Source of the DNA: a virus
IMG/VR virus record: IMGVR_UViG_3300029922_000001
Span: 230,512 to 294,511 of that record
DNA length: 64,000 nt
Direction: 5' to 3' (one strand)
The number at the start of each line of letters is the position of its first letter. The first letter of the stretch is position 1. The notes beneath the pieces are model-generated. The model was given only the letters and a program-made list of their open reading frames with translations. It had not been told where the DNA came from and did no database searches. Positions 21,100 to 45,159 of the stretch are shown here, piece after piece. A program made the translations under genes and the position numbers.

Positions 21100-21121
21100 A
21101 TATTTATCTCGCTGAGGTTCT

Positions 21122-21802
21122 TTATACCTCATATTGCTTCATTAATTCTGGATCACTTTGAGCCGCTATCCATTTATCATATTCTTCAATTTGCTCTTTA
21201 ATTTGTTCAGCACTATCTGCTGTTTTAGATTGGCAACTTTTAATGTCGTTTAATTTACTAAATAATGATTCCACAAGAGGATGTTTTGGTAAATAACATA
21301 TTCCCTTAGAAGCATAATAATCAATTAATTCTTTTTGTTTAAGTTTTGATTCTAATTTATTTTCTTCTGAACATGAACACTTTGGATGAAATGCGTTATA
21401 CATTCTCATATCTTCAATTCTATTTTCTTCAGTGTAAGCACTACAATTAAACAAAATTTCATCATCTTTATCATCCAACTCTAACAGATTAATTAATTCT
21501 TTAATTTTATAAGTTGGTCGATTTTGCTTGTACCAATCCGATTTTTCGTTCTCTTGATTATTTATTAATAAATTCTGTTTTAATGATGGTATTAATTTTT
21601 CAAAAACCTCATGTAGTGTACTTCCTTTAATTTGCACTCTACCAGCAGGTTGAAAATTTAAATTAAATTTAATATTGCCTTTTTTGGACATTGTTAAAGT
21701 CATATGATTCGTTCCACCCATGTTACTTAATCCATCTGGACAATTTTGTAAAAACTCTTTTAATATTTTTAATGTTTTATCTATATTCATTTCCTTTACC
21801 AA
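21122..21802 (-). CDS. hypothetical protein
   Basis: 226-aa ORF. Confidence 0.5.
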   Translation of the reverse strand: MVKEMNIDKTLKILKEFLQNCPDGLSNMGGTNHMTLTMSKKGNIKFNLNFQPAGRVQIKGSTLHEVFEKLIPSLKQNLLINNQENEKSDWYKQNRPTYKIKELINLLELDDKDDEILFNCSAYTEENRIEDMRMYNAFHPKCSCSEENKLESKLKQKELIDYYASKGICYLPKHPLVESLFSKLNDIKSCQSKTADSAEQIKEQIEEYDKWIAAQSDPELMKQYEV

Positions 21803-22137
21803 GATATTGTTAACTGATAACTTTCATAACTTTCATATCCTTCGTATTCACGATCCTTTACAAGAACAACACCATATTCTTCGTCTTCAAAAAACTTTTT
21901 AACATTACAGGCAATTTGATAATTATATAATGTCTCCGTATGACATTCATACTCACCCCTTTTGGCATGTTTTTCAATTAATTTTTTACATTCATCAATG
22001 GTAGTTATTTCTAACTGTTGAAGTCGTAGTTTTTCAGATTGAGCGAATTGTCTTTCTTCTTCTTCAAGAGCAAGTCTTCTTGCTTCAATTTGTTCTTTAG
22101 CTTCTTGAGTTAATCTTCTTGCTTCTTGGATGTTCAT
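21796..22137 (-). CDS. hypothetical coiled-coil protein
   Basis: 113-aa ORF with a charged heptad-like N-terminus. Confidence 0.45.
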   Translation of the reverse strand: MNIQEARRLTQEAKEQIEARRLALEEEERQFAQSEKLRLQQLEITTIDECKKLIEKHAKRGEYECHTETLYNYQIACNVKKFFEDEEYGVVLVKDREYEGYESYESYQLTISW

Positions 22138-22145
22138 TGTAACTA

Positions 22146-22293
22146 TTATACCTTACGACGAATTCGTATGAGAGTATTATCTACTTCTTTTCTTGTGATA
22201 CCTAAAAAAGCAGCAATTGCACGATAAGATTTATTTAAACCATAAGCAATATAAACCTTGGTTTCATTTTGAGTTAATTCTAAATTATTCATA
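22146..22293 (-). CDS. small (about 48 aa) LuxR/sigma-70 region-4-type helix-turn-helix protein; not in the supplied ORF track
   Basis: Hand translation gives MNNLELTQNETKVYIAYGLNKSYRAIAAFLGITRKEVDNTLIRIRRKV. This matches the LuxR-type HTH consensus (LT..E..V......G.s..eIA..LgIs..TV...l.rI..Kl). Coordinates are +/-2 nt. Confidence 0.4.
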
Positions 22294-22318
22294 AGTGTAT
22301 TATAGCATATTTTCTCGC

Positions 22319-22407
22319 GGGAGCTTAGAGATTCGAACTCTAAAGGCGCTTTTTACACGCCTAGCTGTTTTCAAGACAGTTTACCGTCACCAATGGCAGA
22401 ACTCCCG
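22319..22407 (-). tRNA. tRNA-Ser (UGA), class II
   Basis: Acceptor GGGAGTT/AGCTCCC. Anticodon loop CTTGAAA. Variable arm GGCG-TGTAAAAAG-CGCC. T-arm TAGAG-TTCGAAT-CTCTA. Discriminator G, then CGAG. Confidence 0.7.
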
Positions 22408-22516
22408 TATTATTTCGCGGTAAGTAAAATATTCGAATTCGATTCAAAGAATATGAAGACAAACTTTGTTTAATTATTGATTCTATTTTAGGTAGACTTA
22501 ACAATTAAACATCTCG

Positions 22517-22602
22517 AAGACACCAGAATCGAACTGGACTCGCTTTTTACACGAGCGAACAACTTTCCAGGTTGCCGTCATCACCATCAGACATTATCTT
22601 CC
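22517..22602 (-). tRNA. tRNA-Ser (GGA), class II
   Basis: Acceptor GAAGATA/TGTCTTC. Anticodon stem GCAAC/GTTGT with loop CTGGAAA. Variable arm is homologous to that of the Ser(UGA) gene (..GTGTAAAAAGCG..). T-loop TTCGATT. Confidence 0.6.
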
Positions 22603-22615
22603 ATATTATCTCGGA

Positions 22616-22688
22616 GCGCCAAATTGGAATCGAACCAATTTCCTATTGCTTACCAAGCAATCGTTCACCCACATGAACTTTAAGCGCA
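22616..22688 (-). tRNA. tRNA-Thr (GGU)
   Basis: D-arm GTTC/GAAC. Perfect anticodon stem ATTGC/GCAAT with loop TTGGTAA. T-arm ATTGG-TTCGATT-CCAAT. U6:U67 mismatch in the acceptor stem. Discriminator T, then CC, then GAG. Confidence 0.7.
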
Positions 22689-22701
22689 TATATCTCGTGG
22701 A

Positions 22702-22772
22702 GGCTCAATAGAGAATCAAACTCTACTCTGCGGTTTACAAAACCGCTGCATCGTCACAATGCTTTAAAGCCA
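22702..22772 (-). tRNA. tRNA-Thr (UGU); CCA encoded (22699..22701)
   Basis: Acceptor GGCTTTA/TTGAGCC (U:U at 6:67). D-arm GCAT/ATGC. Anticodon stem GCGGT/ACCGC with loop TTTGTAA. T-arm TAGAG-TTTGATT-CTCTA. Confidence 0.7.
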
Positions 22773-22785
22773 TATTATCTCGTAA

Positions 22786-22884
22786 GCCTAGTATCTGATT
22801 CGAACAGATGATGTTTGTATTCTTACTTGTTCTATTTTTTAACACAACAAGGTAAGTGCAATCGACCGCTATGCAAACTAGGCA
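22786..22884 (-). tRNA. intron-containing tRNA (99 nt), probable anticodon UGU (Thr); duplicate of 22702..22772 carrying an insert
   Basis: Perfect acceptor GCCTAGT/ACTAGGC. T-arm ATCTG-TTCGAAT-CAGAT. Anticodon stem CTTAC/GTAAG flanks CTTGT + 18 nt + AA. The insert extends the anticodon helix (CTTGTT/AACAAG). Confidence 0.5.
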
Positions 22885-22898
22885 TTTTATCTCGTGGA

Positions 22899-22984
22899 GG
22901 AAGGCAGCGGGATCGAACCGCAGACGTATTTCAGTCCGTATAGTTTAGCAAACTATCCTAATCGCCGTTTTAGATTACCTTCCA
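22899..22984 (-). tRNA. tRNA-Ser (GCU), class II; CCA encoded (22896..22898)
   Basis: Acceptor GGAAGGT/GCCTTCC. Anticodon stem ATAGT/ACTAT with loop TTGCTAA. Long variable arm. T-loop TTCGATC. Confidence 0.65.
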
Positions 22985-22992
22985 TTATCTCG

Positions 22993-23076
22993 GCTAACGG
23001 GGAGATTCAAACTCCCGAAGGTTTTCACCGATGCATTACGAGTGCATTCCAATTGATCAACTATGGGACGTTAGCA
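22993..23076 (-). tRNA. class II-like tRNA with anticodon CGU (Thr by anticodon; identity uncertain)
   Basis: Perfect acceptor GCTAACG/CGTTAGC. Perfect anticodon stem ATGCA/TGCAT with loop CTCGTAA. Variable arm GGT-GAAA-ACC. T-arm GGGAG-TTTGAAT-CTCCC. Confidence 0.5.
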
Positions 23077-23399
23077 TTTAACATTTCTACATATCTAACT
23101 AAAACCTGACCGTGACACCTTTCTTGTTCGCCCCAACCAGTTTTAGGTCTACAAAAGCATACCAATTTTTTATTATGTAAGGATTTTACCTTATCTTTGA
23201 ATATTAAATCAGTTTCTAATCTATTTTTTAGATATTTTTCATATTCTGGTAAAGTAGAACTAGGAACTTGACCTGGAGATAATACTATTGGATTGCCAAA
23301 ATATCCACTCTGTCCTTTCCCTGCTCTACCTATGTAGACATATTCAGAATCTTGTTCCCAACCCTTGTTGAGATGATATAAATTTACTACTTCAGTCAT
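23061..23399 (-). CDS. DUF4326-like protein
   Basis: VYIGRAGKGQSGYFGNP ... KLVCFCRPKTGWGEQERCHGQVL matches the DUF4326 conserved core as recalled. Its 3' end overlaps the tRNA at 22993..23076 by about 16 nt. Confidence 0.5.
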   Translation of the reverse strand: MTEVVNLYHLNKGWEQDSEYVYIGRAGKGQSGYFGNPIVLSPGQVPSSTLPEYEKYLKNRLETDLIFKDKVKSLHNKKLVCFCRPKTGWGEQERCHGQVLVRYVEMLNANVP

Positions 23400-23952
23400 T
23401 GACTTCCTCTATATATGCTGGTGGCACATATTCTGTTAACCATACACCATTTTCAGAACGATAAAAAACAAATCTATTCAAATCCATTTGCTTTGAATCC
23501 ACCTTCAATAGTGCATACTTTCCTCTTCTAGAACCAACATTAATTGCTGTTTCTATGTTTTCAGAAAGATGAACCGCATGACGATACATCTTCTTAATTC
23601 CTTCCTCTAAAATCATTGGTACAGCATCATATGTTGTACCATGATAAAGAATGGCAGGAGGATTCAATGGAACTAACTGAAGATCAACTTCACAAGAATG
23701 ACCTTGATTGGCTCTAATTCTTGCTCCTGATTCATCATAAGAATATCTTTGCTTATTATTTTCCGTCACTAACTGATCTAAATCAGCCTTTGTGATGTTA
23801 ATATTAAACTTTTTCAAACCGTCTAATAGTTGTGTTACGAATACATAACCTCCAAGATCAAGCTTTTCAACTCCAATCTTTTGTGGCTCATGTCGCAATA
23901 TTAACGAAATAAACTTTCCTATTCTTTTAAATTCACGTTCATCCTTAATCAT
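23392..23952 (-). CDS. tpt1: RNA 2'-phosphotransferase Tpt1/KptA
   Basis: Canonical Tpt1 motifs: ISLILRHEPQKIG, ARIRANQGHS, LYHGT, RHAVHLS. Confidence 0.85.
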   Translation of the reverse strand: MIKDEREFKRIGKFISLILRHEPQKIGVEKLDLGGYVFVTQLLDGLKKFNINITKADLDQLVTENNKQRYSYDESGARIRANQGHSCEVDLQLVPLNPPAILYHGTTYDAVPMILEEGIKKMYRHAVHLSENIETAINVGSRRGKYALLKVDSKQMDLNRFVFYRSENGVWLTEYVPPAYIEEVND

Positions 23953-23974
23953 GTTCTTTTCCCTAACAATGCCC

Positions 23975-24505
23975 TTACTTTTTAGGTAAGAGCATTACTG
24001 TCATTTGTTTCCCTTGTAAGAGAATTTCCCTATCTACAGTTACAATATCATTTAGTTTTTCCAAACAATATTCCAACTTTTGCTTTCCAATATGAGGGTG
24101 AGCGAGTTCTTTTGTTTTGAACTTGCAAACCAACTGCACTTTGTCATGCTTCCCAATAAATTCAACCGCTTTACGAATTGACGTATCCAAGTCATGTACA
24201 GCCGTATTAGGGCTAATACAAAGTGTTTTAAGTTCTTGAGGCTTTTTACGGTTGTCTTTTGCACGTTTTGCCTCTTCATACTTATATTTGCCATAGCTTA
24301 CGATTTTGCAGATAGGTGGTTGTACCTTATCAGATACGCACAACAAATCTAAACCAGCATCATATGCTATTTGGATTGCATCCTTCGTGGGCATTACACC
24401 AATATTTTTGTTATTAGCGTCAATGACCGTTACTTCGGTAAATTGCTTAATGAGTCTTTCATTAAGGGGTGGGAATTCTCTGCGATTACTTTTTTTCATC
24501 ATCAT
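23975..24505 (-). CDS. infC: translation initiation factor IF3 (bacterial type)
   Basis: N-domain VTVIDANNKNIGVMPTKDAIQIAYDAGLDLLCVSDKVQPPICKIVSYGKYKYEE plus a C-domain. Matches the IF3 family end to end. Confidence 0.85.
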   Translation of the reverse strand: MMMKKSNRREFPPLNERLIKQFTEVTVIDANNKNIGVMPTKDAIQIAYDAGLDLLCVSDKVQPPICKIVSYGKYKYEEAKRAKDNRKKPQELKTLCISPNTAVHDLDTSIRKAVEFIGKHDKVQLVCKFKTKELAHPHIGKQKLEYCLEKLNDIVTVDREILLQGKQMTVMLLPKK

Positions 24506-24602
24506 AATAGATTGACCTATTATACCAGGGTATTCTTCTTCATTACAATCTTTCTCTATTCAATTTTCAATGTGCTTGAGTTTTAATTCTCGGTAAATAA
24601 AA

Positions 24603-24640
24603 AACAGGAAGTCCGACTTAGGTCTGTCGGACTTCCTGTT
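24603..24640. terminator. hairpin AACAGGAAGTCCGAC-(8 nt)-GTCGGACTTCCTGTT
   Basis: 15-bp perfect arms, unusually GC-rich for this sequence. Downstream of the minus-strand gene 24793..25326. Confidence 0.5.
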
Positions 24641-24792
24641 GAATCTTTCTATTTGGTTTTCTTTATGCTTGCCCGACAACAGCATTTCTACAGCTTCCAC
24701 AACTTGTGGAACTGGTAGTACTTGATGTTGATGTTGACGTGACTAATTTCATTTTAACCTGCTACGTTTATTATACCCAATGTTTTGATTGT

Positions 24793-25326
24793 TTACCATG
24801 TTTTTTTGCTTTTACCATCAAAACCTGTTTCTTTTAAGATTCTATCCCAAATTTCTTCTTTTGGAGTGTTCCCTAAATATGGATCTTTTGCCCAATTCAA
24901 GTTGGTAATTTCTAGTATAACAGGAAATGGTGGAGTATAGGCTTCAGCTTCTTCTAAAGAAGAAAATTCCATTTCCATACTAAGCAAATAATGTCTATGG
25001 ATCATATATTCATTAATTTCTTCACCGCTAGATAAAAAAGTTCTTCGTTTTTCAACTCTTTTCATTTTTGGTATTAAATTGTAATTATAAAACCAATTAA
25101 AAAGAAAAATTGGGATTTTAATATTGTATTCTTTTCTGACCAAAGGATCTGAGGTTTTTAATTTAAAAGTTAATTCGCATTTATTTGAAACTGAATATGT
25201 TTTACGAATGCGACAACTTTTAAAAAATGGAAAATATCCTTGTGAAATGTATACGTTGTGTGTTTGAGTATCCCAAGGAATATCATTTTGATTTACTATA
25301 AACTTGCGTTCAATTTCATTAGCCAT
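24793..25326 (-). CDS. hypothetical protein, member of a local tandem paralog family (MANEIERKFIV...)
   Basis: 177 aa. The N- and C-terminal halves recur separately in 25653..25886 and 25340..25600. Confidence 0.5.
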   Translation of the reverse strand: MANEIERKFIVNQNDIPWDTQTHNVYISQGYFPFFKSCRIRKTYSVSNKCELTFKLKTSDPLVRKEYNIKIPIFLFNWFYNYNLIPKMKRVEKRRTFLSSGEEINEYMIHRHYLLSMEMEFSSLEEAEAYTPPFPVILEITNLNWAKDPYLGNTPKEEIWDRILKETGFDGKSKKTW

Positions 25327-25339
25327 GCTTTAGTATACT

Positions 25340-25886
25340 TCATTTACCAGGACCCCACTCAAGACCAGGGAATTTATTTAAATTTTCCTCAATTTCTTTC
25401 CAGGGTGTGATTGATAGATATGGCTCTTTCGCCCAAGGCACATGTGTAATCTCTGTAACGTACTTGAAATCAGGAATATAAGCTTGTGCATCTTCCAGAG
25501 AATCAAATTCCATTTCTACGATTACATAATACTGACCAGGATATTCATTAATTTGTTCTCCTGTTGGAATAATGTGTCGTGTTTTTTTAGTTTTAGTCAT
25601 CCAAGGTGTAAGATACCAAAGCGGGAAAAAGACAAATTTAGGGATTTTAAAGTTATATTCCTTCCTGTCCTAAATTGGTCTGTTTATTCTTGTTTTTCTT
25701 GAATGTCAATTCGTATGTGCGGTCTTCATCTGAATATAATTCTTCATAGGTAATGATAGACTCACGAATTCTGAGATTTTTAATTAAAGGGAAATATCCT
25801 TGGGAAATGTCATGCCATTCTATAACATTTTCCCAAGGAATTTGGGTTGGTCGCACTATAAACTTGCGTTCAATTTCATTAGCCAT
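25340..25886 (-). pseudogene. disrupted paralog of 24793..25326, split into an N-terminal ORF (25653..25886) and a C-terminal ORF (25340..25600) in different frames
   Basis: The 31-nt string TATAAACTTGCGTTCAATTTCATTAGCCAT is identical at 25296..25326 and 25856..25886. C-terminal homology: EMEFDSLEDAQAY..PWAKEPYL versus EMEFSSLEEAEAY..NWAKDPYL. Confidence 0.45.
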
Positions 25887-25893
25887 ATGGCTA

Positions 25894-26883
25894 TTATACT
25901 TGAGCAAGTTCGGCTTGTAGCTCTTTAATGCGCTTTTGGAGTTCAAGTTTCTTTTTAAGTGTCGCTTCTTCTCTAAGCAAAGCTTGGAATTCAGCATCAA
26001 CTTCTTCCACTGCAACAGTCTCTAAAGCAACATGCTTCTTTATGGCTTTAGCTGCTTTAGGCATTTCTGTAGCCAAGATTGGTACATATCCTCTTAGTAT
26101 AAGAGTAAGACTTGTTGCATGATCTTCAATATCAATCCATTCTTTTTGACCAAAGGTTTGATTGGATCTGCTACCTTCAACAGTGCAAACATCTTGTTCT
26201 CTTGATTCATTTAAAGATTTTGGCATAGCATTCGCAAATGAGTCTAAAGAATCCATTGACATGCTTGAAGCGGAATATGTTGGAGAACCAAAGCTTAATG
26301 AATTCAGTGAATTTACTGAATCTGAGCATAATCCTCTTACATTGCTTTTCATGGAAGATTGACCAATTAAAGCATTATTACTACCACACCAGACTTCATC
26401 ATGTCGTCTAGGGTAATGCTTGTAAGGGTATGAATAATCACGATACCAAGGATATGAATAATCATGATAATGATGATGATCTACTACGATTGGAATGTAG
26501 ACTGGTTGTGGTTTTTCTTTTTCTAACCAGAAGAAGGCTTCAACAACACCTTTGGAGCGGTCTTCATTAGAACCATTTTTTCCAAAATCAATAGCGTCAT
26601 TACTGTCTAAAGCAGCTAATTTAAAGCATTTGTTGGTTTCATAGAAGCGTTCAAGATCAATTGCGCTGTTAGCGTTAATAATATATCCATCACCGGATAC
26701 ATTTTCCCCGTCAATATGAATTTTGACCAAGGCTCTACGATTGTTTTTGTTTCTGAGGCGTAAACTATATTCTGATCCGAATGGAACTAGTACAGAATGA
26801 TCGTTTCTCTCTGGGAGAAAGTCGTTTTGATTTTTGAGCTTGATAGCAAGCACGAAGTTTTTGTTATACATATTTTTAACCAT
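25894..26883 (-). CDS. hypothetical protein with His/Tyr-rich low-complexity segment and C-terminal coiled coil
   Basis: The ORF is open to 26949. An internal Met at about 26883 avoids overlapping the divergent PARP gene. Contains HHHYHDYSYPWYRDYSYPYKHY. Confidence 0.5.
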   Translation of the reverse strand: MVKNMYNKNFVLAIKLKNQNDFLPERNDHSVLVPFGSEYSLRLRNKNNRRALVKIHIDGENVSGDGYIINANSAIDLERFYETNKCFKLAALDSNDAIDFGKNGSNEDRSKGVVEAFFWLEKEKPQPVYIPIVVDHHHYHDYSYPWYRDYSYPYKHYPRRHDEVWCGSNNALIGQSSMKSNVRGLCSDSVNSLNSLSFGSPTYSASSMSMDSLDSFANAMPKSLNESREQDVCTVEGSRSNQTFGQKEWIDIEDHATSLTLILRGYVPILATEMPKAAKAIKKHVALETVAVEEVDAEFQALLREEATLKKKLELQKRIKELQAELAQV

Positions 26884-27081
26884 TATAATCCTAACTCTTG
26901 TCCTCATGAGAGCGTGATTCGGCACCTTAATGGCGAGTGCCAAGGACAATTCTATTATACACCCGTTTTGAGGTTTTTTACCTTCGGATTAAAAAACAGT
27001 CCAAACACAATAAAATTAATTATAATAAATTACCTTGTGAATAGGCTTGACAGTCTGAGGAATAGGAGGTATTATAACAAC

Positions 27082-28380
27082 ATGAGTAGCATTCTCGCTA
27101 GTAAGAAATACATTTATACGGATATCCAGGCGAATAACAATAAGTTCTGGAATATTGACCGCTATGACGATCATACAGTAATTACACGTTGGGGACGTGT
27201 TGGCGACAAAGAACAAAGCAAATCTTTCCCACATGGATCTGAAACTTCCGCAATTGCTTTTTTTAATCAAAAGTGTAGTGAAAAATCCAAGAAGGGTTAT
27301 ACCGAACAACGAACCATTGAATCCAATACTACCGTAAAGCAAACAACCGTTGCTTCATCCAATCTTGAAAGTATTGCTAAAAGACAGATTCAAACTAATT
27401 CACCTGAACTAGATGCTTTGATTTCAAGGCTTACCAAAGCTAACATTCATAGCATTGTCGCAAACAGTAATATTAGCTATAACGATACAACTGGTTTGTT
27501 TTCAACGCCATTAGGAATTATTGATGAAGATGCGATTTTGGAAGCTAGAGAACTTCTAGTGTCCATTAATTCTATTGTTCTCAATAGAGACTTTGGAAAT
27601 AAGGATTTTGCTGGAATCACCAATAAGTATTTTAGAATCGTTCCTACAGTTATCGGTAGATATCGTCAAGAACCTCAAGACCTATTCCCTAATAAGGAAA
27701 CCGTTGTAAAGCAAAATGATCTTTTGGACTCACTTGAAGTCAGCTTGCAAACTGCTAAGGCAACCCCTGTAACTGCTACAACATCTGTTGAACCTGAAAA
27801 GAACATCTTTAATGTTAAGCTTCATGTGGTTGATGATCTTCCTGTTATTCAACGAATTACAGCCAAATATCAATCAACAATGAATCGTGGTCATCAGTGT
27901 TCCCATCTTGGTGTTAAGCGTGTTTATGAATTAGAAATTGGTGCTATGAAGACTGCTTTCGAAAATAAGGGTAAGCAAATTGGTGGTATTCAAGAGTTGT
28001 GGCACGGTTCAAGAGTTGCCAATATTCTTTCTATTCTCTATAAGGGAATGATTATCCCACCTTCTAATTCTAGTTTTGTGGCTGGTCGTTTGTTTGGAGA
28101 CGGTTTGTATTTTGCCAACCAAAGCACAAAGTCTCTTAATTATTCTTATGGATATTGGGATGCTAAAGGCAAGGACGAAAATTGCTTTATGTTCCTTTGT
28201 GATGTAGCTATGGGCAAGCACTATACTCCTAAGTATTTACAATCCAATATTCCTGCTGGATATGATAGTTTCTGGGCTAAGGCTGGTATTTCTGGCGTAC
28301 AGAATGATGAAATCATCGTTCCACGTCTTTATCAAGCCAATCCTAGATATTTGATCGAATTCTCACCAGGTGGTAGATAA
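27082..28380 (+). CDS. poly(ADP-ribose) polymerase (WGR domain + PARP regulatory/catalytic domains)
   Basis: WGR domain FWNIDRYDDHTVITRWGRVGDKEQSKS. Catalytic region HGSRVANILSILYKGM ... GDGLYFANQSTKSLNYS ... E in the C-terminus. True ATG is at 27082; the longer track ORF from 26797 overlaps the neighbouring gene. Confidence 0.85.
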   Translation: MSSILASKKYIYTDIQANNNKFWNIDRYDDHTVITRWGRVGDKEQSKSFPHGSETSAIAFFNQKCSEKSKKGYTEQRTIESNTTVKQTTVASSNLESIAKRQIQTNSPELDALISRLTKANIHSIVANSNISYNDTTGLFSTPLGIIDEDAILEARELLVSINSIVLNRDFGNKDFAGITNKYFRIVPTVIGRYRQEPQDLFPNKETVVKQNDLLDSLEVSLQTAKATPVTATTSVEPEKNIFNVKLHVVDDLPVIQRITAKYQSTMNRGHQCSHLGVKRVYELEIGAMKTAFENKGKQIGGIQELWHGSRVANILSILYKGMIIPPSNSSFVAGRLFGDGLYFANQSTKSLNYSYGYWDAKGKDENCFMFLCDVAMGKHYTPKYLQSNIPAGYDSFWAKAGISGVQNDEIIVPRLYQANPRYLIEFSPGGR

Positions 28381-28414
28381 GATCAAGCCTGTTCTTGAGG
28401 TATAATAAATCATT

Positions 28415-28843: not shown

Positions 28844-28851
28844 AATAAAGT

Positions 28852-29780: not shown

Positions 29781-29792
29781 TGGTAAAATAAT

Positions 29793-29819
29793 TGTATGTT
29801 ACTAAGAGTAACATACAAG
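29793..29819. terminator. hairpin TTGTATGTTACT-AAGA-GTAACATACAA
   Basis: Lies 3' of gene 29457..29780. Confidence 0.45.
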
Positions 29820-29885
29820 CACTACAGCAAAAATCTATAATAATATTAAATATAGAAATTTAAAATTATATACACGAGTATAAAT

Positions 29886-30398
29886 ATGAAAAATTTTATT
29901 ATAGACGTAGAAGCTAATGGACCCTGCCCCGGTCTTTATAGTATGGTGAGTTTTGGGGCTGTTTTAGTAGACGGTAAAAATCAAGTAACATTCAAAGGTG
30001 AAGTTAGACCAATTACTGAATTATACGATCAAGGTGCTTATGATGCTATTGGTGTAACCTATGCAGAACACTTAACGTATGATGATCCTGAAAAGGTTAT
30101 GCTTGCTTTTAATAAGTGGGTTAATAATACCACAGGAAATGATAGGGCTACTTTATGGAGCGATAATAACCAATTTGATGGACAATATATGAATTATTAT
30201 TTCCATAGATATGTGGGAAGTAATCCATTTGGATTTTCTTCAAGACGTATTGGTGATTTGTATTCTGGATATGTTAAAGATATTAGTACAGCCACTAAAT
30301 GGAAGAATTTAAGAGATACAAAACACAATCATGAGGCTTTAACAGACGCTATAGGCAATGCCGAAGCCTTATGGAAAATAATGCAATGGATGAAATAA
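29886..30398 (+). CDS. DEDDh 3'-5' exonuclease (DnaQ/oligoribonuclease-like)
   Basis: Exo motif I DVEANG (D-x-E). Motif III HEALTDAIGNAEAL (H-x4-D). Confidence 0.65.
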   Translation: MKNFIIDVEANGPCPGLYSMVSFGAVLVDGKNQVTFKGEVRPITELYDQGAYDAIGVTYAEHLTYDDPEKVMLAFNKWVNNTTGNDRATLWSDNNQFDGQYMNYYFHRYVGSNPFGFSSRRIGDLYSGYVKDISTATKWKNLRDTKHNHEALTDAIGNAEALWKIMQWMK

Positions 30399-33575: not shown

Positions 33576-33577
33576 GT

Positions 33578-35779: not shown

Positions 35780-35780
35780 A

Positions 35781-36353: not shown

Positions 36354-36381
36354 TCAAGAATGATTGTGGTATACTGAAATC

Positions 36382-38087: not shown

Positions 38088-38286
38088 AACAGCAATAGAA
38101 ATGTCAATATAAGAAATTAATATATTCTTAGCCACTAAAGTATTTGGTTGGACTAACGTTAAAAAGAAACGCCCTTAATTTATGTAAGGCTTCTGTTAGA
38201 ACCTTGATTCTGTTTTCTTTTTTAGCAATATCGTCTGCTACTTTTTGTTTAAATATGATATTATCTAAGCAATTATTCATAGCCTA

Positions 38287-39183: not shown

Positions 39184-39204
39184 ATAAGCTATTGTAGCAT
39201 ATTT

Positions 39205-39651
39205 CTATGGTGATTTCGCCCAATAGTTTTTATAATGTTTAACTTCAGCATCTAAATCAAAAGGTAATCCTTTAACATGGTTGAAGTAAGCTTTAGATAT
39301 AATGCCAGTCATATCATCCGCATGAAGTACTCCTAAATTTTTAAACCACTTAGCTAATACGGAGTCATGCCACAATCCCCAGGTATTGCGCATATAAGTA
39401 CCATAGCCATGATGTGGCATCATTTCATAAGTGGATTTAGCATCATTTTTGATGAAATCTATATATTCAGGAGTTGCCACTGAATCAAAATAAGCGATAA
39501 CTTCATCTAGATTATTTGGGATATTGGTTGCACTAATAGCGGGTAAGATTTTTACAACCTTAACTAGCCTATTAAAATATTCATTATTATCGAAAGCGTC
39601 TTGAATTGATTTGTCTGTGACTTTTTCCATGCGTACTTCATCATTGTTCAT
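39205..39651 (-). CDS. hypothetical protein
   Basis: 148-aa ORF. Confidence 0.45.
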   Translation of the reverse strand: MNNDEVRMEKVTDKSIQDAFDNNEYFNRLVKVVKILPAISATNIPNNLDEVIAYFDSVATPEYIDFIKNDAKSTYEMMPHHGYGTYMRNTWGLWHDSVLAKWFKNLGVLHADDMTGIISKAYFNHVKGLPFDLDAEVKHYKNYWAKSP

Positions 39652-40196
39652 AGTTTATTATACTTAATCAGATTCTCTTCTTGTGTGATTTTATCCCAAG
39701 GTGCTTTAGATTGAAGAACTTTTTCAACAGTTGGATCATAATCCCAACGTTTAATCATATTTTGAATACTTTTAAGAGGTACACTATGTTGATTTCTTTT
39801 AGCTAATTCTTGTGCATCGAATTTCCAAGGTGTTTCAGGTTCATGAAAACTAACTTTATAATCATATTTTTGAGCAAGTTTTACGTACTCTCGAAATTCA
39901 TAAAAAGAACAATTTGTATTGTCACAAATAATAGGAGTAATACCTTGTTGCATTGCCACTTCAGTTCTTCTTTCATTTTCTTTATGATTTTCAGTTAGTT
40001 TATTAACATCAAATTTATATTCACCATTAACCATAAATAGATCATCAGTAGAATGAATAACTCCACCTTTTCCTAATTGCTTAGAAAGAAAACTTTTGCC
40101 AGAACCGGGAAGTCCGCGAATTATTCTTAACTCTTTTTCTTGTTGTGCTTTTCTATACCAAGTAGACATAATTCGATTATACCATTTTTCTATCAA
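39648..40196 (-). CDS. P-loop kinase (AAA_33 / polynucleotide-kinase-like)
   Basis: Walker A RGLPGSGKSFLSKQL and a downstream ICDNTN segment, consistent with a Walker B / Asp-containing lid. 182 aa. Confidence 0.6.
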   Translation of the reverse strand: MIEKWYNRIMSTWYRKAQQEKELRIIRGLPGSGKSFLSKQLGKGGVIHSTDDLFMVNGEYKFDVNKLTENHKENERRTEVAMQQGITPIICDNTNCSFYEFREYVKLAQKYDYKVSFHEPETPWKFDAQELAKRNQHSVPLKSIQNMIKRWDYDPTVEKVLQSKAPWDKITQEENLIKYNKL

Positions 40197-40884
40197 TAAT
40201 TTCTCTAGTAATATATCCAGTAAACTTCTGCCAAGATTTCCGCGTCATTTGTTTTCTTACTCTTTTATATAAAGAATGTTTCTTAATTGCTTTAGTTATT
40301 GCTTTACCATTGAGCTTAATAGAGTCAACATCAATGCACGACATAAAGCTTTTTGCTAAAGCTTGAACTTCTAGGGGATTGTTAAAATACGCATACTCTC
40401 CCATGTCATAGATGTTGATATATGTTTTGTCTTTACGTTTTTCTGTATACTCATTTTGAAAATTAGTAATATACAAATCATAATCAGCATGAAAATCTGG
40501 CACACATCCTGCTTGTAAACAGTGAACCAACTCATGTCCCAATCTATCAACATAATCTGCGAGACAATGACATTCACATATATCAAGATATATGTAATAG
40601 TACATATATCTTTCACCAAAACCGCTGGAATCATCATCTAAAAGAAATATTCTAATAGGATATTTAAACATTTTTAGTGAGTTTAACCAATTTTCTATTT
40701 CTAATAGTTTTCTTCTAAATTTATTACCATTAATGGAACTTTCTAATATACCAATACTTTCCTCAATACAAGGATGACGTTGTTTAACTGTTTTTGTTTT
40801 TATTTCACTTAATTTCCAATTAACTTCAATTAATCGTTTAGCTAATTCAACTTCAATTCCATGTGTATCGGGGATTTTAGGCAT
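40177..40884 (-). CDS. hypothetical protein with HExxH motif (possible zinc metallopeptidase)
   Basis: GHELVHCLQAG. Confidence 0.45.
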   Translation of the reverse strand: MPKIPDTHGIEVELAKRLIEVNWKLSEIKTKTVKQRHPCIEESIGILESSINGNKFRRKLLEIENWLNSLKMFKYPIRIFLLDDDSSGFGERYMYYYIYLDICECHCLADYVDRLGHELVHCLQAGCVPDFHADYDLYITNFQNEYTEKRKDKTYINIYDMGEYAYFNNPLEVQALAKSFMSCIDVDSIKLNGKAITKAIKKHSLYKRVRKQMTRKSWQKFTGYITREIIDRKMV

Positions 40885-40934
40885 AAACTCTTAAACTCTC
40901 TAACTCGTAAGCACCTTGTGGTGCTTTATTATAC

Positions 40935-41219
40935 TTATCGGTAAATATGAATGTGAGCAAAGGTTGGTTTATTGGTTAATGCTACTTCGTATTTCAAAAC
41001 ACAAGAATCTTCACCATCTTTCATGTGTTTGGCAGATATAATTTCTTTATCAATACCATCTTTTCCAGCAAGACGAATACCTGTTTGTTTAAGAGCGGCA
41101 GATTTGATAGCGTGTTGGAAAAATATATCAGCGTGTTGTGAATATCCTTCACGATCTAATCTAGCACTCATTTCTAAAATTAAATCTTGATTCATATAAC
41201 CAATATACGCAATCCACAA
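40935..41219 (-). CDS. hypothetical protein
   Basis: 94-aa ORF. Confidence 0.4.
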   Translation of the reverse strand: MWIAYIGYMNQDLILEMSARLDREGYSQHADIFFQHAIKSAALKQTGIRLAGKDGIDKEIISAKHMKDGEDSCVLKYEVALTNKPTFAHIHIYR

Positions 41220-41407
41220 TTAAAAACCTTTACAATAAAATATGGTTTCTAAGCGTAAAATACTCAAAGTAATAAATAGAGAAATTAGAATAGTCAACTC
41301 TAATATACAAAGATGTAGTTCAAAAAGTAGCTATTTGAGACTTATGACACGTAAAATTCTCTTAATTAATTATCAACACAAATTACAATAATTCTTATAA
41401 TACAATT

Positions 41408-41800
41408 ATGGAAAATACAAATAAAATCCCTAAAGAAATTAAGATCGTAAAAGTTGGTAGTGACGATTATCCTGCATCTGAAGCAGATTTAGAAGCAGTT
41501 CAAGAAGAATTAGCCGCATTAGCTAACGATCCCACATTGCCTAAAACTAATAAATATAAAACTCAAACCATTAAACCTTCCGGTAAAGGTGAAAAACAAA
41601 TTTTATTTGTTAAACTTGGTAATAGACATCGTTATGCCAGTGAGTCAGACCTGGATTCAGTAAGGGAAGAAATACTTAAATCATTAAAAGATTTAAAAAA
41701 TGATAATCTACTCACCTGGGTCGTACCTCATGATTTTAACATCAAAATTCTCAATGTTGATTCACAAGATGATATTGAAGTAAAAGTTGAACGCGGATAA
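41408..41800 (+). CDS. hypothetical protein
   Basis: 130-aa ORF preceded by CTTATAATACAATT-ATG. Confidence 0.45.
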   Translation: MENTNKIPKEIKIVKVGSDDYPASEADLEAVQEELAALANDPTLPKTNKYKTQTIKPSGKGEKQILFVKLGNRHRYASESDLDSVREEILKSLKDLKNDNLLTWVVPHDFNIKILNVDSQDDIEVKVERG

Positions 41801-42151
41801 TTACCAAATAAGAGTTGCATAAGTTATGTCATCTTCAGTCCAATAATGGACTTCGTAGCCCATAATAGCCATTTCTGCGGCAAATAAACTACCATCATCA
41901 TGAGTTGCGTAAGTTGGTTGACTGATTGTTATTTTCCGTTTACCAGCTTGTGCTGCTCCACTAATTCGCTTAAAAACCGATGCAAAACGTTGTTCGATTT
42001 GTTCCTGACGTTGTTTCTTTTCTATTACAGGAATTGCTGTCACTTTTGGCATTAATCCTCTAGCTTCTTTGGCTTTCATATCATTATTGTACTTATAATA
42101 GAGATATGAAGCCATTATGGACAGATAGAGATCGTAGCCCAAGTGAACCAA
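41801..42151 (-). CDS. hypothetical protein
   Basis: 116-aa ORF. Confidence 0.4.
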   Translation of the reverse strand: MVHLGYDLYLSIMASYLYYKYNNDMKAKEARGLMPKVTAIPVIEKKQRQEQIEQRFASVFKRISGAAQAGKRKITISQPTYATHDDGSLFAAEMAIMGYEVHYWTEDDITYATLIW

Positions 42152-42456
42152 ATTTCACAGATTATACCTATGTGTATTTTCAAGGTCATAAAATTGGAGA
42201 AATTAAAGATTGCATAAGTTATTCTTTAACTCCATATTTAAATGAAGCTGAAATTGATGACATTGATCATATTTGCACTTTTACTATTATAAATCAATAT
42301 AAAGAATATGATCAAAAGTGTATAGAAATTGTAGATGAATGCGGAAGATATTACAACATGCATAATGAAATAATACAACTTGGATTAAAGGCTAAAATTC
42401 AACAGTTAGGTGAATTGTATGCAAATGAAACTAAAAAGATGGCTACTGTTGTATAA
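42106..42456 (+). CDS. hypothetical protein
   Basis: 116-aa ORF. Confidence 0.4.
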   Translation: MKPLWTDRDRSPSEPNFTDYTYVYFQGHKIGEIKDCISYSLTPYLNEAEIDDIDHICTFTIINQYKEYDQKCIEIVDECGRYYNMHNEIIQLGLKAKIQQLGELYANETKKMATVV

Positions 42457-42764
42457 ACAGTAGCATGGATATTTTAGATAGATACAGTAAAGATACTATA
42501 GATTATGTGCTATTAACTGACGTATGCAAATCCGCAATACTCGACACCATTTTTCAGATGGTAGATAGAGGGGCACCAGATGAAGAGATTCTTGATGATA
42601 TCAGGCAATTAAGAGAAAGATATCTAAGTATTCGTTAAATTATGTAACAAATTAGGATTGCGGAATCCTAGTTAATATGGAACAAAATCTATTAACCATT
42701 CATATCAATCGTCTTCAAAAACTTATTCAAATGAACGCACCTGATTTTATCATAGAACAAGAGG

Positions 42765-43439
42765 TTAAATTATTACTCTCACTTTGGGTTTAACCCAAAG
42801 TGACTCAATAGTAAAATAAACAACAATACCTAAAGCTGGATTAATTTCATATTCATGCTCTCCATCTTCATTTATAACAGGTTGATCATTATCATCATAT
42901 AAATAAATATGCCCACGAACATCATCGGCAGGTAAACATTTAATTTTACTAACTTGTAAATCACCATAAACTTGTATATTTTTACATACGGCTTCACGGT
43001 GAGCATCCTCAAACATGTTTAAGCCATCATCAAATAGTAATTCTTGGCGATTGTAACCAGCCTGATTAAGTGTTTGATAAATATAAACATCTAATTGTCT
43101 AGATAAGCTTCTAATGGCTTTATTTGCACTAGACTCACTAAATAAAGCACCCATTCTTTCATCCCAAGGCAAATCACACTTTGGATCACGCATTCTTACT
43201 GCTAATGAACATGCTATTTCAATAGGTTTAATACTGTCTAAGTCTATTGTTTTAATTTGTTGTGGTATATGAAAGCGACTATTAGATAATGCCACAACGT
43301 CCATATTAATATATGAAGAATCTATGACTGTTAAAATACTTTTCCAAGTGTTGGTAATACCATCAAATTTTTCTTGAATAACTAATTCCTGTTGTTTAGT
43401 TGCTTCAATCCTATCATTTACATTTTTAAAGTAATTCAT
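42765..43439 (-). CDS. hypothetical protein
   Basis: 224-aa ORF. Confidence 0.5.
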   Translation of the reverse strand: MNYFKNVNDRIEATKQQELVIQEKFDGITNTWKSILTVIDSSYINMDVVALSNSRFHIPQQIKTIDLDSIKPIEIACSLAVRMRDPKCDLPWDERMGALFSESSANKAIRSLSRQLDVYIYQTLNQAGYNRQELLFDDGLNMFEDAHREAVCKNIQVYGDLQVSKIKCLPADDVRGHIYLYDDNDQPVINEDGEHEYEINPALGIVVYFTIESLWVKPKVRVII

Positions 43440-44302
43440 ATATTATTATAAGTCATTTTATAATCATAATCATAAGCCTTAAACCACTTCCTGATAGCAT
43501 TATCACTAACTCCATATTTCTTACCAATCTTAACCATTGATAAAGTTTTGTAATCTTCAATTAATTGTTCTAATGATGGTCTTTCTGCTTTTCGTGTATT
43601 TAATGCACGATCTTGTGAGTTTGGTAATACAATATTAAAGTATTTACATATTCTTATAATTTTACTTTCAGAACATTTAAATTGTTTGCCAATTAATTTT
43701 AATCCATTTTTATTAATCAATTGTTGGAGTTCTTCTTTGGTTAAATTATTATCATCTACCCAAATTTTATAATCTTTTTTTTGTCTTTCTTTAACCTCTT
43801 TTATTGATAAATGTTTTGCCCATAATTTGTTTTTAGATCCAAAATTATCAGTTTGACTATGACAGTTAGGACATAAAAATCTTAAATTATCTTGTGTATT
43901 ATGAGTGTAGTTTCCATCAACATGATCAACGTGTAATGTTATTTTCTTTCCTAACCAATCTTTATTGACAAAACATTCACTACCTTCACACTCATAAGGT
44001 CTTCCAGTTTCAATAAGAGCCCTAGTTAATAATTTAGATGATACTCTGTTATTTCCAAATTTTATATTTACTAAAATATCTTCGGCAGTTTTACGATTTA
44101 CACTTTTCTTGCCTCTCATCCAGTTTTCACTATTGAAATGGTCTGTATTAATATTAAAATAATTAACTCTACGTTTAATGTGTGTTTGGCTACCACCAGC
44201 TTGTACAATATTTAGATTTCTTAAAACCCCTGCATAGGAAAAACTTTTATTTACCGCTTCTTCTAATATGTCTTTTGTGTATTTTTCTTTATATTTTCTC
44301 AT
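43436..44302 (-). CDS. HNH homing-endonuclease-like protein
   Basis: HVDHVDGNYTHNTQDNLRFLCPNCHSQTD (HNH core), plus a C-terminal DNA-binding-like region. Lies directly next to the tRNA-Leu array. Confidence 0.7.
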   Translation of the reverse strand: MRKYKEKYTKDILEEAVNKSFSYAGVLRNLNIVQAGGSQTHIKRRVNYFNINTDHFNSENWMRGKKSVNRKTAEDILVNIKFGNNRVSSKLLTRALIETGRPYECEGSECFVNKDWLGKKITLHVDHVDGNYTHNTQDNLRFLCPNCHSQTDNFGSKNKLWAKHLSIKEVKERQKKDYKIWVDDNNLTKEELQQLINKNGLKLIGKQFKCSESKIIRICKYFNIVLPNSQDRALNTRKAERPSLEQLIEDYKTLSMVKIGKKYGVSDNAIRKWFKAYDYDYKMTYNNI

Positions 44303-44381
44303 ACTATTAATATACTGGAAGATACACTAAATTACCTTTAATTAAAGGTATAGGTTCAAATTTATAATAAAATTTATCTCG

Positions 44382-44462
44382 TACTAGGAAAGGGACTCGA
44401 ACCCTCAAGGATCATTCGTTCTTAACGAAGTGGGTCTGCCATTTCCCATTATCCACCCTAGC
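44382..44462 (-). tRNA. tRNA-Leu-like (anticodon AAG), atypical: about 5 extra nt between acceptor stem and D-arm; possible pseudogene or duplicate of 44983..45068
   Basis: Acceptor GCTAGGG/TCCTAGT. Anticodon loop TTAAGAA. T-arm GAGGG-TTCGAGT-CCCTT. The 5' half does not fit the canonical 9-nt spacing. Confidence 0.4.
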
Positions 44463-44475
44463 ATATTAATCTCGG

Positions 44476-44557
44476 TACTAGAGAAGGGATTCGAACCCTC
44501 AAGGATTTTTGTTTCTAAAACAAAACGGTCTACCGATTCCACGTTATCCACCCTAGC
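44476..44557 (-). tRNA. tRNA-Leu-like (anticodon UAG), atypical 5' half; possible pseudogene or duplicate of 44872..44973
   Basis: Shares its first 14 nt (GCTAGGGTGGATAA) with 44382..44462. Anticodon stem TTTGT/ACAAA with loop TTTAGAA. T-loop TTCGAAT. Confidence 0.4.
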
Positions 44558-44567
44558 ATTTATCTCG

Positions 44568-44651
44568 TCCCGGCGAGTGGACTCGAACCACCACGCCCTT
44601 TCAGGCAACAGATTTTGAGTCTGCCGCATCTACCAATTACACCACACCGGG
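44568..44651 (-). tRNA. tRNA-Leu (CAA), class II
   Basis: Acceptor CCCGGTG/CGCCGGG. Anticodon stem GCAGA/TCTGT with loop CTCAAAA. Variable arm GCC-TGAAAG-GGC. T-arm GGTGG-TTCGAGT-CCACT. Discriminator A, then CGAG. Confidence 0.75.
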
Positions 44652-44871
44652 ATATTTCTCGTATAAGAAATTAATTCTTATTTTGTGAATCAAGTTGTCT
44701 TACTCTACTAAATAAAGCATCTCTCATTTCTTTGTTTTCACTTACTTCTTTAGCGTATGCACCCATCATATTTCTAAACATTTTTTGACCTTCTTCAGTA
44801 TTCATTGCTGATTCAATTATTTTCATTTTTTCAGGACTTGTTATAATCATATTAATTCTCCAATATCTCGG

Positions 44872-44973
44872 TGAGCAAACAGGGACTTGAACCCTGATGA
44901 CATTTTACTGTCGATGGGTTAGCAAAATTCTGATCTTGCTAAGCCCATTGCGTCTACATTTCGCCATTCGCCC
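44872..44973 (-). tRNA. intron-containing tRNA-Leu (UAG), class II, 102 nt with an 18-nt insert in the anticodon loop
   Basis: Acceptor GGGCGAA/TTTGCTC. Anticodon stem ATGGG/CCCAT flanks CTTAG + 18 nt + AA. The insert forms the TTAGCAA/TTGCTAA helix with the anticodon. Variable arm GACA-GTAAAA-TGTC. T-arm CAGGG-TTCAAGT-CCCTG. Confidence 0.55.
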
Positions 44974-44982
44974 ATATTCTCG

Positions 44983-45068
44983 TGCGGAGTAAAAGATTTG
45001 AACTTTCACCTGTTGATAAGACAGAATGGGACCTTAGCCCATCGCGGCTACCATTACGCCAACCCCGC
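44983..45068 (-). tRNA. tRNA-Leu (AAG), class II
   Basis: Acceptor GCGGGGT/ACTCCGC. D-arm GCG/CGC. Perfect anticodon stem ATGGG/CCCAT with loop CTAAGGT. Variable arm CTGT-CTTATCA-ACAG. T-arm GAAAG-TTCAAAT-CTTTT. Confidence 0.75.
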
Positions 45069-45077
45069 ATATTCTCG

Positions 45078-45159
45078 TCCGGGCGAGAGGGTTTGAACCT
45101 CCATGTCTTGCGACGGCAGGTTTTAAACCTGCTGCGGCTACCAATTTCGCCACACCCGG
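45078..45159 (-). tRNA. tRNA-Leu (UAA), class II
   Basis: Acceptor CCGGGTG/CGCCCGG. Anticodon stem GCAGG/CCTGC with loop TTTAAAA. Variable arm GTC-GCAA-GAC. T-arm GGAGG-TTCAAAC-CCTCT. Confidence 0.75.

Follow-up and report, generated by a model that had tools for sequence, protein, structure and literature searches.

Why should the same tetranucleotide stand behind every transfer RNA (tRNA) gene of a phage, and on which molecule is it read? The question is raised by a 64-kb stretch of the virus record IMGVR_UViG_3300029922_000001 (positions 230,512 to 294,511), hereafter the window, for which an earlier note had described CGAG after every tRNA 3' end, followed within arrays by an A-rich piece abutting the next tRNA, and had suggested a dedicated processing, termination or mini-promoter signal. 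Our analysis indicates that the CGAG signal is real, lineage-specific and read at the RNA level, and that tRNA processing is its best-supported interpretation. More specifically, we give a probability of about one half to the proposal that a sequence-specific endoribonuclease recognizes CGAG together with its A/U-rich tail and trims tRNA 3' trailers there, in the manner of T4 RegB/S1. The window is part of the 521,591-bp metagenomic contig ena:ERZ27248709:k141_1408874, where it occupies about 231,361-295,360, from an uncultivated huge phage of 33% GC, and was analyzed together with flanks of 8.7 kb and 7.9 kb (about 80 kb in all, or about 15% of the contig).

For the identification of tRNA genes, ARAGORN (default, intron-tolerant and low-threshold runs), Rfam and inspection by hand were used. 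The inventory comprises 18 tRNA genes and two tRNA 3'-half remnants, all of them on the minus strand between 8.7 and 45.2 kb of the window, and no tRNAs were found in the two flanks. Default settings of ARAGORN yielded 11 tRNAs; allowing introns added four, namely Pro (15380-15482), Cys (20924-21013), Val (22785-22883) and Arg (44872-44973), and lowering the threshold added two odd tRNAs (44382-44462, X2, and 44476-44557, X1) and an odd tRNA-like gene (17013-17109). The two remnants, with ends at 16757 and 19528, came from an inspection of every minus-strand CGAG. The boxes are listed below, where ORF denotes an open reading frame and SD a Shine-Dalgarno sequence.

8756..8762, minus strand: CCA-CGAG after tRNA-Ile(UAU) (8763-8833), then ACAGGAG (SD) and an ORF start
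15373..15379, minus strand: CCA-CGAG after tRNA-Pro(GGG) (15380-15482), which has a 31-nt anticodon-loop insert
16750..16756, minus strand: CCA-CGAG after a tRNA 3'-half-like element (T arm and acceptor 3' strand); the ATG of the next ORF lies 6 nt beyond CGAG
17008..17012, minus strand: C-CGAG behind the odd tRNA-like gene 17013-17109, a cloverleaf whose anticodon arm is rod-like; ATG 7 nt beyond CGAG
19521..19527, minus strand: CCA-CGAG after a tRNA 3'-end remnant (TTTGATTCTC-ACATAGCCC-T)
20919..20923, minus strand: C-CGAG after tRNA-Cys(GCA) (20924-21013), with a 17-nt insert; ATG 5 nt beyond CGAG
21014..21023, minus strand: spacer CCGAGAGTTT, from tRNA-Cys to the insert-bearing tRNA-Cys
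21100..21111, minus strand: CGAGATAAATAT abutting the 5' side of tRNA-Cys, with no earlier tRNA; ahead of it, the upstream ORF ends with a hairpin (GAGGU...ACCUC)
22314..22317, minus strand: CGAG after tRNA-Ser(UGA), the last of array 1, then TGCTATAAT, promoter of the next ORF
22513..22516, minus strand: CGAG overlapping C72-G73 of tRNA-Ser(GGA)
22602..22614, minus strand: spacer CCGAGATAATAT(G), from tRNA-Thr(GGU) to tRNA-Ser(GGA)
22688..22700, minus strand: spacer CCACGAGATATAT, from tRNA-Thr(UGU) to tRNA-Thr(GGU)
22772..22784, minus strand: spacer TACGAGATAATAT, from the insert-bearing tRNA-Val to tRNA-Thr(UGU)
22884..22897, minus strand: spacer CCACGAGATAAAAT, from tRNA-Ser(GCU) to tRNA-Val
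22984..22992, minus strand: spacer (C73)GAGATAAT, from tRNA-Thr(CGU) to tRNA-Ser(GCU)
44372..44381, minus strand: CGAGATAAAT after the odd tRNA X2 (44382-44462), the last gene of the Leu array
44463..44475, minus strand: spacer CCGAGATTAATAT, from the odd tRNA X1 to X2
44558..44567, minus strand: spacer CGAGATAAAT, from tRNA-Leu(CAA) to X1
44652..44661, minus strand: CGAGAAATAT upstream of tRNA-Leu(CAA), behind a 51-codon ORF, no tRNA before it
44867..44871, minus strand: C-CGAG after tRNA-Arg(UCU), with an 18-nt insert, then ATATTGGAG (SD) and an ORF
44974..44982, minus strand: spacer CGAGAATAT, from tRNA-Leu(AAG) to tRNA-Arg
45069..45077, minus strand: spacer CGAGAATAT, from tRNA-Leu(UAA) to tRNA-Leu(AAG)

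With the discriminator N73 placed by acceptor-stem pairing, CGAG adjoins 20 of 20 tRNA or tRNA-like 3' ends in the window and starts between -2 and +3 nt relative to N73+1. Six ends read CCA-CGAG (offset +3), six C-CGAG (offset +1), five CGAG directly (offset 0) and one UA-CGAG (offset +2), while in two cases the box reuses either C73 (offset -1) or C72-G73 (offset -2). The core is CGAG in all 22 boxes and the base directly 3' of it is A or T at 20/20 ends, the tetranucleotide being unchanged where the tRNA bodies have diverged. The minus strand of the 64 kb holds 57 occurrences of CGAG, and the chance that one starts within the 6-nt window is 0.005 per tRNA; for 20 out of 20, counting GAG alone, P is ~1e-27. 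Chance is excluded as the cause of CGAG at tRNA ends. The whole-window count of the longer word CGAGAWAW taken alone does not exceed shuffles (12 against 7.1 expected). Since 11 of the 12, on the minus strand, lie at tRNA flanks, the signal is positional.

In the arrays, CGAG is followed by 5-8 A/T-rich nucleotides ending in AT and then by the next tRNA. What follows the box, be it a tRNA, an ORF equipped with an SD or promoter of its own, or 75-108 nt without any feature, does not change its place at the tRNA 3' end, which marks it as a 3'-end signal. Two boxes with their A/T part precede a first tRNA with no tRNA upstream (21100-21111 and 44652-44661); Thr-CGU and Leu-UAA, each at the head of an array, lack an upstream box. 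We considered and rejected a rule that a CGAG without a tRNA before it must follow a hairpin, since the cases are too few: 21111 supports it (z -2.6), 44661 is ambiguous, and 40907 shows a hairpin as well.

The observation of the earlier note is confirmed and stronger than claimed. It extends past the range given there: the boxes behind the solitary genes (8756-8759, 15373-15376, 16750-16753) are joined by two that the note did not list (17008-17011 and 19521-19524). The tRNA-less box that it had seen before the first Cys tRNA has a counterpart before tRNA-Leu(CAA). Its coordinates were right or within 1-4 nt; 44562..44571 should read 44558..44567, and 22691..22698, 22885..22895 and 22985..22993 are each 1 nt off.

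The protein-coding genes tell on which molecule the word is likely to be read. When synonymous-codon shuffles of 97 ORFs were taken as the baseline, sense-strand CGAG was found 19 times in ORFs, compared with 46.9 expected (z ~ -5). It is thereby the third most depleted of the 256 tetramers, behind the palindromes GGCC (0 against 26) and TCGA, and the most depleted non-palindromic one. Because TCGAG contains the avoided palindrome TCGA, this overlap was removed before retesting, and sense [ACG]CGAG was still found 15 times against 33.2 expected (0/400 shuffles as low), as opposed to its antisense counterpart CTCG[CGT], which shows no depletion (31 against 31.9). The sister words CGAA, CGAC, CGAT, CGGA and CGTA have ratios of 0.95-1.05, and neither AGAG (1.00) nor TGAG (1.04) is depleted. 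The depletion of sense-strand CGAG in the ORFs of this phage amounts to 2.2-2.5-fold. Two reading frames show it independently of each other (0.28 and 0.38), as do the genes of both DNA strands (6 against 19.5 and 13 against 27.4), and it therefore tracks the direction of transcription. In 25 genes of the same phage outside the window it was replicated (CGAG 1 against 9.4; [ACG]CGAG 0 against 6.6), and pooled unrelated loci of three GC classes did not show it (ratios 1.05, 0.99 and 1.00), GGAG being depleted in all loci compared, as SD avoidance predicts. A depletion that is sense-only, word-specific and absent from unrelated loci argues that CGAG is read on RNA. If a word is constant behind all tRNAs and has been removed from the sense strand of messages, it would most simply be a site of RNA cleavage or of tight recognition. 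The dedicated processing signal, one of the options of the earlier note, is thus supported by its anchoring to tRNA 3' ends, its strand specificity and its avoidance in ORFs.

The A/T-rich half has a different status. T is found at -1 of the leader in 13/18 cases, A at -2 in 16/18 and A at -4 in 13/18, and A(-2)U(-1) in an unstructured leader is the general optimum of bacterial RNase P (PMC10731613). Unrelated control tRNAs also have A at -2 in 17/19 cases. This half, which had been taken as part of the conserved spacer and does abut the next tRNA in the arrays, is a generic RNase P leader and not a dedicated element. The spacers conform to the canonical leader, for which U(-1), A(-2), a lack of structure and no pairing with the 3' RCCA are characteristic, whereas a canonical 3' trailer would have a weak consensus only and not a tetranucleotide that is invariant at 20/20 ends.

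Is the box found anywhere else? None of 19 tRNAs of unbiased control loci is followed by CGAG (0/19). A scan of IMG/VR for a T loop followed by CGAGATAAW returned 104 stretches with one match each, and the other tRNAs of those loci lack CGAG. It is likewise missing from the tRNAs of three IMG/VR huge phages and 80 metagenome loci that were found through their IF-3 (34-43% identity), the three phages having CCA and then unrelated trailers, and no spacer motif is conserved in the tRNA cluster of T4. When 185,579 species were scanned for two CCA-CGAG tRNAs in succession, 17 matches came back, scattered and mostly of high GC, which is about the chance level. Judged from these sequence comparisons, the CGAG box is lineage-specific, as no other phage or bacterial lineage among those examined has the motif. 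The earlier note had not recognized it from a described system, which holds as far as it was checked. An unrelated huge phage, IMGVR_UViG_3300020429_000539 (488 kb), carries more than 20 tRNAs, nearly all with a T-rich trailer directly after the discriminator or CCA; these trailers (N73-TTT or N73-CTT) constitute a different, RNase Z-like signature.

Relatives of the phage itself were sought by protein and by DNA. Among 5.8 billion proteins, a single homologue of its major capsid protein (52% identity) was found, on an 8.6-kb contig without tRNAs, and apart from this the protein shows distant kinship with the major head protein of Bacillus phage G (22% identity). The nearest matches of its Tpt1 are on two phage-like contigs without nearby tRNAs, the other matches being bacterial. 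No relatives were found for the HNH gene and a 226-aa ORF between the arrays, DNA similarity to known phages at the level of arrays gave single-tRNA matches only, and a TnpB search for the host in 185,579 species had no match. The identical sequence is present in one JGI bog metagenome (3300029913) and in SRR8555072.

We suggest that the element consists of two halves with different functions, both read on RNA. The CGAG box lies as near as possible to the tRNA 3' end, overlapping an encoded C, CC or CCA, and an endoribonuclease that recognizes CGAG with its A/U-rich, C-poor 3' neighbourhood would sever the tRNA from the next tRNA or mRNA. The cut would most simply fall between CGAG and the following A/U, since the register of CGAG varies and a cut after the box would be the only single position that spares every tRNA. 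The short 3' stub would be removed by 3' exonucleases, so that the six CCA-encoding tRNAs would end at CCA and the others would be finished by a CCA-adding enzyme. The 5-8 A/U-rich nucleotides ending in A(-2)U(-1) would serve as the unstructured leader on which RNase P makes the 5' end of the next tRNA. The phage ORFs may have been purged of CGAG because a free CGAG within a message would be harmful. Cleavage at CGAG, the position of the cut, the steps of trimming and CCA repair and the encoder of the enzyme are all things that we infer. The enzyme may belong to the phage or to the host, and we slightly favour a phage-encoded one. Possible helper enzymes in the window are an Rv2179c-like exoribonuclease (29886-30398) and PNKP (57372-58250). 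An extended version appears rather doubtful to us: a phage-encoded endoribonuclease for CGAG and the A/U tail could have a dual role, freeing the tRNAs and some near-leaderless mRNAs and also destroying host mRNAs, which are not purged of the word, while the phage's own messages escape. If true, this would be a RegB-like host shutoff coupled to tRNA punctuation.

Several points weigh against the proposed endoribonuclease. The transfer-messenger RNA (tmRNA; 63063-63416, plus strand) lacks CGAG at its 3' end. As the register varies, no single cut inside CGAG would give the correct 3' end for all tRNAs, and additional trimming or repair has to be assumed. Pfam and PHROGs scans of about 70 ORFs, covering ~80 kb of the 521 kb, returned no candidate endoribonuclease, and T4 RegB compared by tblastn with the window and its flanks (~80 kb) gave a best E of 1.3. 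A relative with tRNAs was not found with five proteins and several DNA patterns. In addition, the sense-strand avoidance would fit a non-cleaving RNA-binding factor or a transcription-coupled signal. The HNH gene (43436-44302), named in the earlier note as a candidate for the cleavage, matches homing DNA endonuclease families, and nothing ties it to RNA cleavage.

The most probable alternative is ordinary host processing, in which a general endonuclease, of the RNase E type (RN/WUU, the slash marking the cut) or the RNase Y type (G/A), together with RNase P would do the work with no dedicated factor, CGAG being no more than a fitting case of such a weak consensus. The consensus of RNase E is fitted broadly by the CGAG junctions. 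CGAG/AUAAU followed by a structured tRNA also agrees with the weak motif of RNase Y, in which a GA stands in unstructured AU-rich sequence and structure lies downstream (PMC11780869). The A(-2)U(-1) leader is generic anyway, and such short unstructured spacers could be managed by RNase P and exonucleases alone. However, consensus sequences as weak and degenerate as these do not predict an invariant tetranucleotide at 20/20 sites; in B. subtilis, 37% of the RNase Y sites lack the G, and mutation of the G was without effect (PMC11780869). Nor do they predict a 2.2-2.5-fold purge from ORFs of exactly CGAG and not of AGAG, TGAG or CGAA. The control phage and bacterial loci show neither the depletion nor the box on any of their 19 tRNAs, and the scan for consecutive CCA-CGAG tRNAs had a chance-level yield. 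We therefore consider this explanation unlikely.

A transcription signal is much less probable. The box would here be a mini-promoter of the next tRNA or ORF, starting 5-8 nt past CGAG, or else a terminator or pause site, used by a phage polymerase or by that of the host carrying a phage sigma factor. The promoters of the phage have to be considered first. Of 82 called genes, about 50 lack an SD and show a (T)G(G)TATAAT or GTATACT box that ends 5-8 nt before the ATG. This points to an extended -10 promoter for each gene and to transcripts that are for the most part leaderless. A minority of gene starts use GGAG or AGGA. A comparable architecture is reported for Deinococcus-Thermus (PMC12340547). 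Several facts agree with a transcription signal: at 12 junctions, 5-8 nt separate CGAG from +1 of the next tRNA; four ORFs begin 5-7 nt past CGAG without a TATAAT box or SD (16753, 17011, 20922, 29875), a spacing that matches the 5-8 nt from TATAAT to ATG in this apparently leaderless genome; a sigma-70 r2/r4-like ORF lies just upstream of the window; and strand-specific avoidance could in principle reflect a signal on the non-template strand. The spacers of 8-14 nt are however too short for the phage's own (T)G(G)TATAAT type of promoter, and from a GATAAT inside them transcription would begin within the next tRNA. Promoter-like sites of the sigma-70 type are no more frequent in the arrays than in shuffles (12 against 11.8 and 4 against 4.1), and CGAG is found in the region -20..-3 of 0/82 called gene starts. 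Terminator-like sites are not enriched either, and no hairpin with a U-run follows the boxes. The mini-promoter and the terminator considered in the earlier note are thus not supported. Moreover, CGAG remains tied to the upstream tRNA where no feature follows and where the following gene has an SD or promoter of its own, and Thr-CGU and Leu-UAA, first in their arrays, lack an upstream CGAG.

Of nearly the same low probability is an origin at the level of DNA, according to which the boxes would be scars or recombination sites of tRNA cassettes (duplicated units, microhomology at C/CC/CCA, targets of homing endonucleases or integrases) without RNA function. CGAG does occur on both sides of some units (21111 and 21022; 44661 and 44567), its overlap with C, CC or CCA resembles microhomology, the two tRNA 3'-half remnants retain CCA-CGAG (16757, 19528), X1 and X2 are tandem paralogues, and HNH, GIY-YIG and TnpB genes are nearby. 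Yet the tRNA bodies are far diverged and CGAG is kept to 100%, which calls for selection; solitary tRNAs tens of kb apart also have the box; and the depletion follows the sense strand in either gene orientation and is absent from the antisense strand, unlike that of a DNA site. Finally, a translation-type signal, in which GAG, 5-8 nt and AUG (its G being tRNA +1) would mimic a ribosome-binding site and bind 30S or S1, is the least probable: most junctions do read GAG-N5-8-ATG and three to four real ORFs start at this spacing past CGAG, but A(-2)U(-1)G(+1) accounts for the AUG, genes led by an SD use GGAG, AGGA or AAGG in this phage, with CGAG at 0/82 called starts, and CGAG pairs with the anti-SD no better than the undepleted AGAG and UGAG (1.00 and 1.04).

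Some of the tRNAs are unusual in themselves. The Pro-GGG, Cys-GCA, Val-UAC and Arg-UCU tRNAs carry inserts of 31, 17, 18 and 18 nt, at a site compatible with a position between nt 34 and 35, and the tRNA-like gene 17013-17109 (minus strand) resembles these four. The predicted fold of each is a cloverleaf in which the anticodon arm forms a long rod bearing a 1-nt bulge rather than a bulge-helix-bulge (z -3.4 to -6.1). 'Enigmatic introns' have been described in the tRNAs of the huge Lak phages (bioRxiv 10.1101/356790). A connection of the anticodon-loop inserts with CGAG was rejected, as they contain no CGAG and share no boundary motif. The odd tandem tRNAs X2 and X1 (44382-44462 and 44476-44557, minus strand; GCTAGGGTGGATAA...) have the anticodon loops AAG and UAG (Leu) in an array otherwise consisting of Leu tRNAs; their D region is enlarged, a long variable arm is absent, they were called by ARAGORN at low threshold only, and they fold poorly in silico. 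The tRNA 3' half at 16757-16800 (minus strand) is a paralogue of the 3' half of tRNA-Pro with compensatory changes in the T stem, and 19528-19555 (minus strand) is a tRNA 3'-end remnant. At about 10380-10450 (minus strand) a possible T-armless Ser(CGA)-like element is followed by A-CGAG. The 108-nt gap preceding tRNA-Ser(UGA) (22407-22514, minus strand) terminates in CGAAATAATAC and may be a decayed tRNA, the CGAG of which has mutated to CGAA.

The surroundings of the arrays show further peculiarities. The stop codon of a DUF4326 ORF (23061-23399, minus strand) falls within tRNA-Thr(CGU), in the region 23061-23075, so that RNase P cutting a co-transcript would strip the message of its stop codon. 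A 15-bp hairpin with a T-run (45193-45225, minus strand), 34 nt upstream of the first Leu tRNA, adjoins a TnpB gene (45418-46764, plus strand) and may be a terminator or an IS605-family end; given this hairpin, the Leu array has no obvious promoter. The tmRNA (plus strand) is served by a TTGACT / TGGTATAAT promoter and a hairpin terminator of its own, finishes with ACC-CGCGAAAC and encodes an unusual tag (GKSYAYVG, then stop). GGCC does not occur at all in the 64-kb window, where ~26 would be expected in the ORFs by themselves, nor in the flanking genes (0 against 9.3 expected), and TCGA is depleted to 0.45, which is likely to reflect avoidance of restriction sites and gives a clue to the restriction-modification systems of the host.

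The window encodes HNH and GIY-YIG endonucleases, two TnpB genes, a class II aminoacyl-tRNA synthetase and the tmRNA. The other genes of interest are the following.

23392-23952, minus strand: Tpt1/KptA RNA 2'-phosphotransferase (Pfam E 1.6e-44), 317 nt upstream of tRNA array 1
23975-24505, minus strand: IF-3
57372-58250, plus strand: PNKP, T4-type
29886-30398, plus strand: Rv2179c-like 3'-5' exoribonuclease (RNase T-like)
26797-28380: PARP-like gene
18430-18942: NADAR gene

Tpt1, PNKP, the Rv2179c-like exoribonuclease and IF-3 could be a toolkit for RNA healing or splicing, and Tpt1 could equally be grouped with the PARP-like and NADAR genes instead. The anticodon-binding domain of GluRS is a separate 215-aa ORF (11489-12136, minus strand). 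The set of IMPDH/GMP reductase, NADAR, Tpt1 and GluRS genes also occurs on two other large phage-like contigs, and its recurrence suggests a wider group of phages rich in translation genes.

Huge phages carry dozens of tRNAs, the excision of which from transcripts has, to our knowledge, remained essentially unstudied. When a 4-nt box is invariant after every tRNA and mRNAs avoid the very same word, computation alone reveals the signature of sequence-specific RNA processing, and this provides a concrete target, namely an enzyme that reads CGAG. If phage-encoded, this enzyme would be the second phage endoribonuclease with a short defined specificity after RegB, a potential tool and a possible mechanism of host shutoff. 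Other phage genomes can be screened with the same paired test, in which a word must be both constant beside the tRNAs and under-represented in the sense strand of ORFs.

Among known systems, T4 RegB with S1 offers the closest parallel in the design of the site. Its target GGAGRAYARAA (T4 consensus GGAGAAUAAAA) comprises 11 single-stranded nucleotides with an invariant GGA(G) and a C-poor, A-rich tail (PMC1702504). Both systems thus have a short invariant purine-rich core followed by a degenerate A-rich, C-poor 7-mer in single-stranded intergenic RNA. The junctions here are CGAGAAUAU, CGAGAUAAAU and CGAGAUAAUAU, and the first two depart from the RegB site GGAGAAUAAAA mainly at the first base. 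The in-array tails (ATAAT, AATAT, ATAAAT etc.), in which C is rare, conform to the RegB type, in contrast to the core, which is CGAG in 22/22 boxes and not GGA(G). RegB cuts its tetranucleotide in the middle, with S1 as a stimulating factor. RegB sites are moreover located in the SD sequences of early mRNAs, as opposed to the positions after tRNAs considered here, where cleavage is presumed. Because the core differs and no RegB homologue was found in the 80 kb examined, the system may be said to work like RegB but not to be RegB.

The maturation of polycistronic pre-tRNAs in bacteria shares with this phage the short unstructured A/U-rich spacers, the A(-2)U(-1) leader and the mixture of CCA-encoding and CCA-less genes, which need different 3' routes. 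Its 3'-trailer determinants are weak, however (RN/WUU; G/A; U after N73 for RNase Z), and we know of none that is an invariant tetranucleotide or is purged from the mRNAs of the same genome. The arrays of the ToxI/ToxN type III toxin-antitoxin system and of CRISPR/Cas6 resemble the ones described here in that a short sequence recurs between functional RNA units, all of which could be freed by one enzyme. Their repeats are however 28-36 nt long and near-identical, with an adjacent nuclease gene, whereas in the present arrays 4 nt are fixed within variable spacers of 8-14 nt and no adjacent endonuclease gene of that kind was found nearby.

In the tRNA punctuation model for mitochondria of Ojala, Montoya and Attardi, the shape of the tRNA alone directs RNase P and RNase Z, without a sequence box. 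As in mitochondria, the tRNAs lie among ORFs along a single strand, and several of these reading frames begin 5-7 nt past a tRNA and its CGAG. Since the genome is apparently largely leaderless, tRNA excision could here yield near-leaderless mRNAs. The punctuation in this phage would differ from the mitochondrial one by its sequence box, and by the fact that most ORFs have a promoter of their own.

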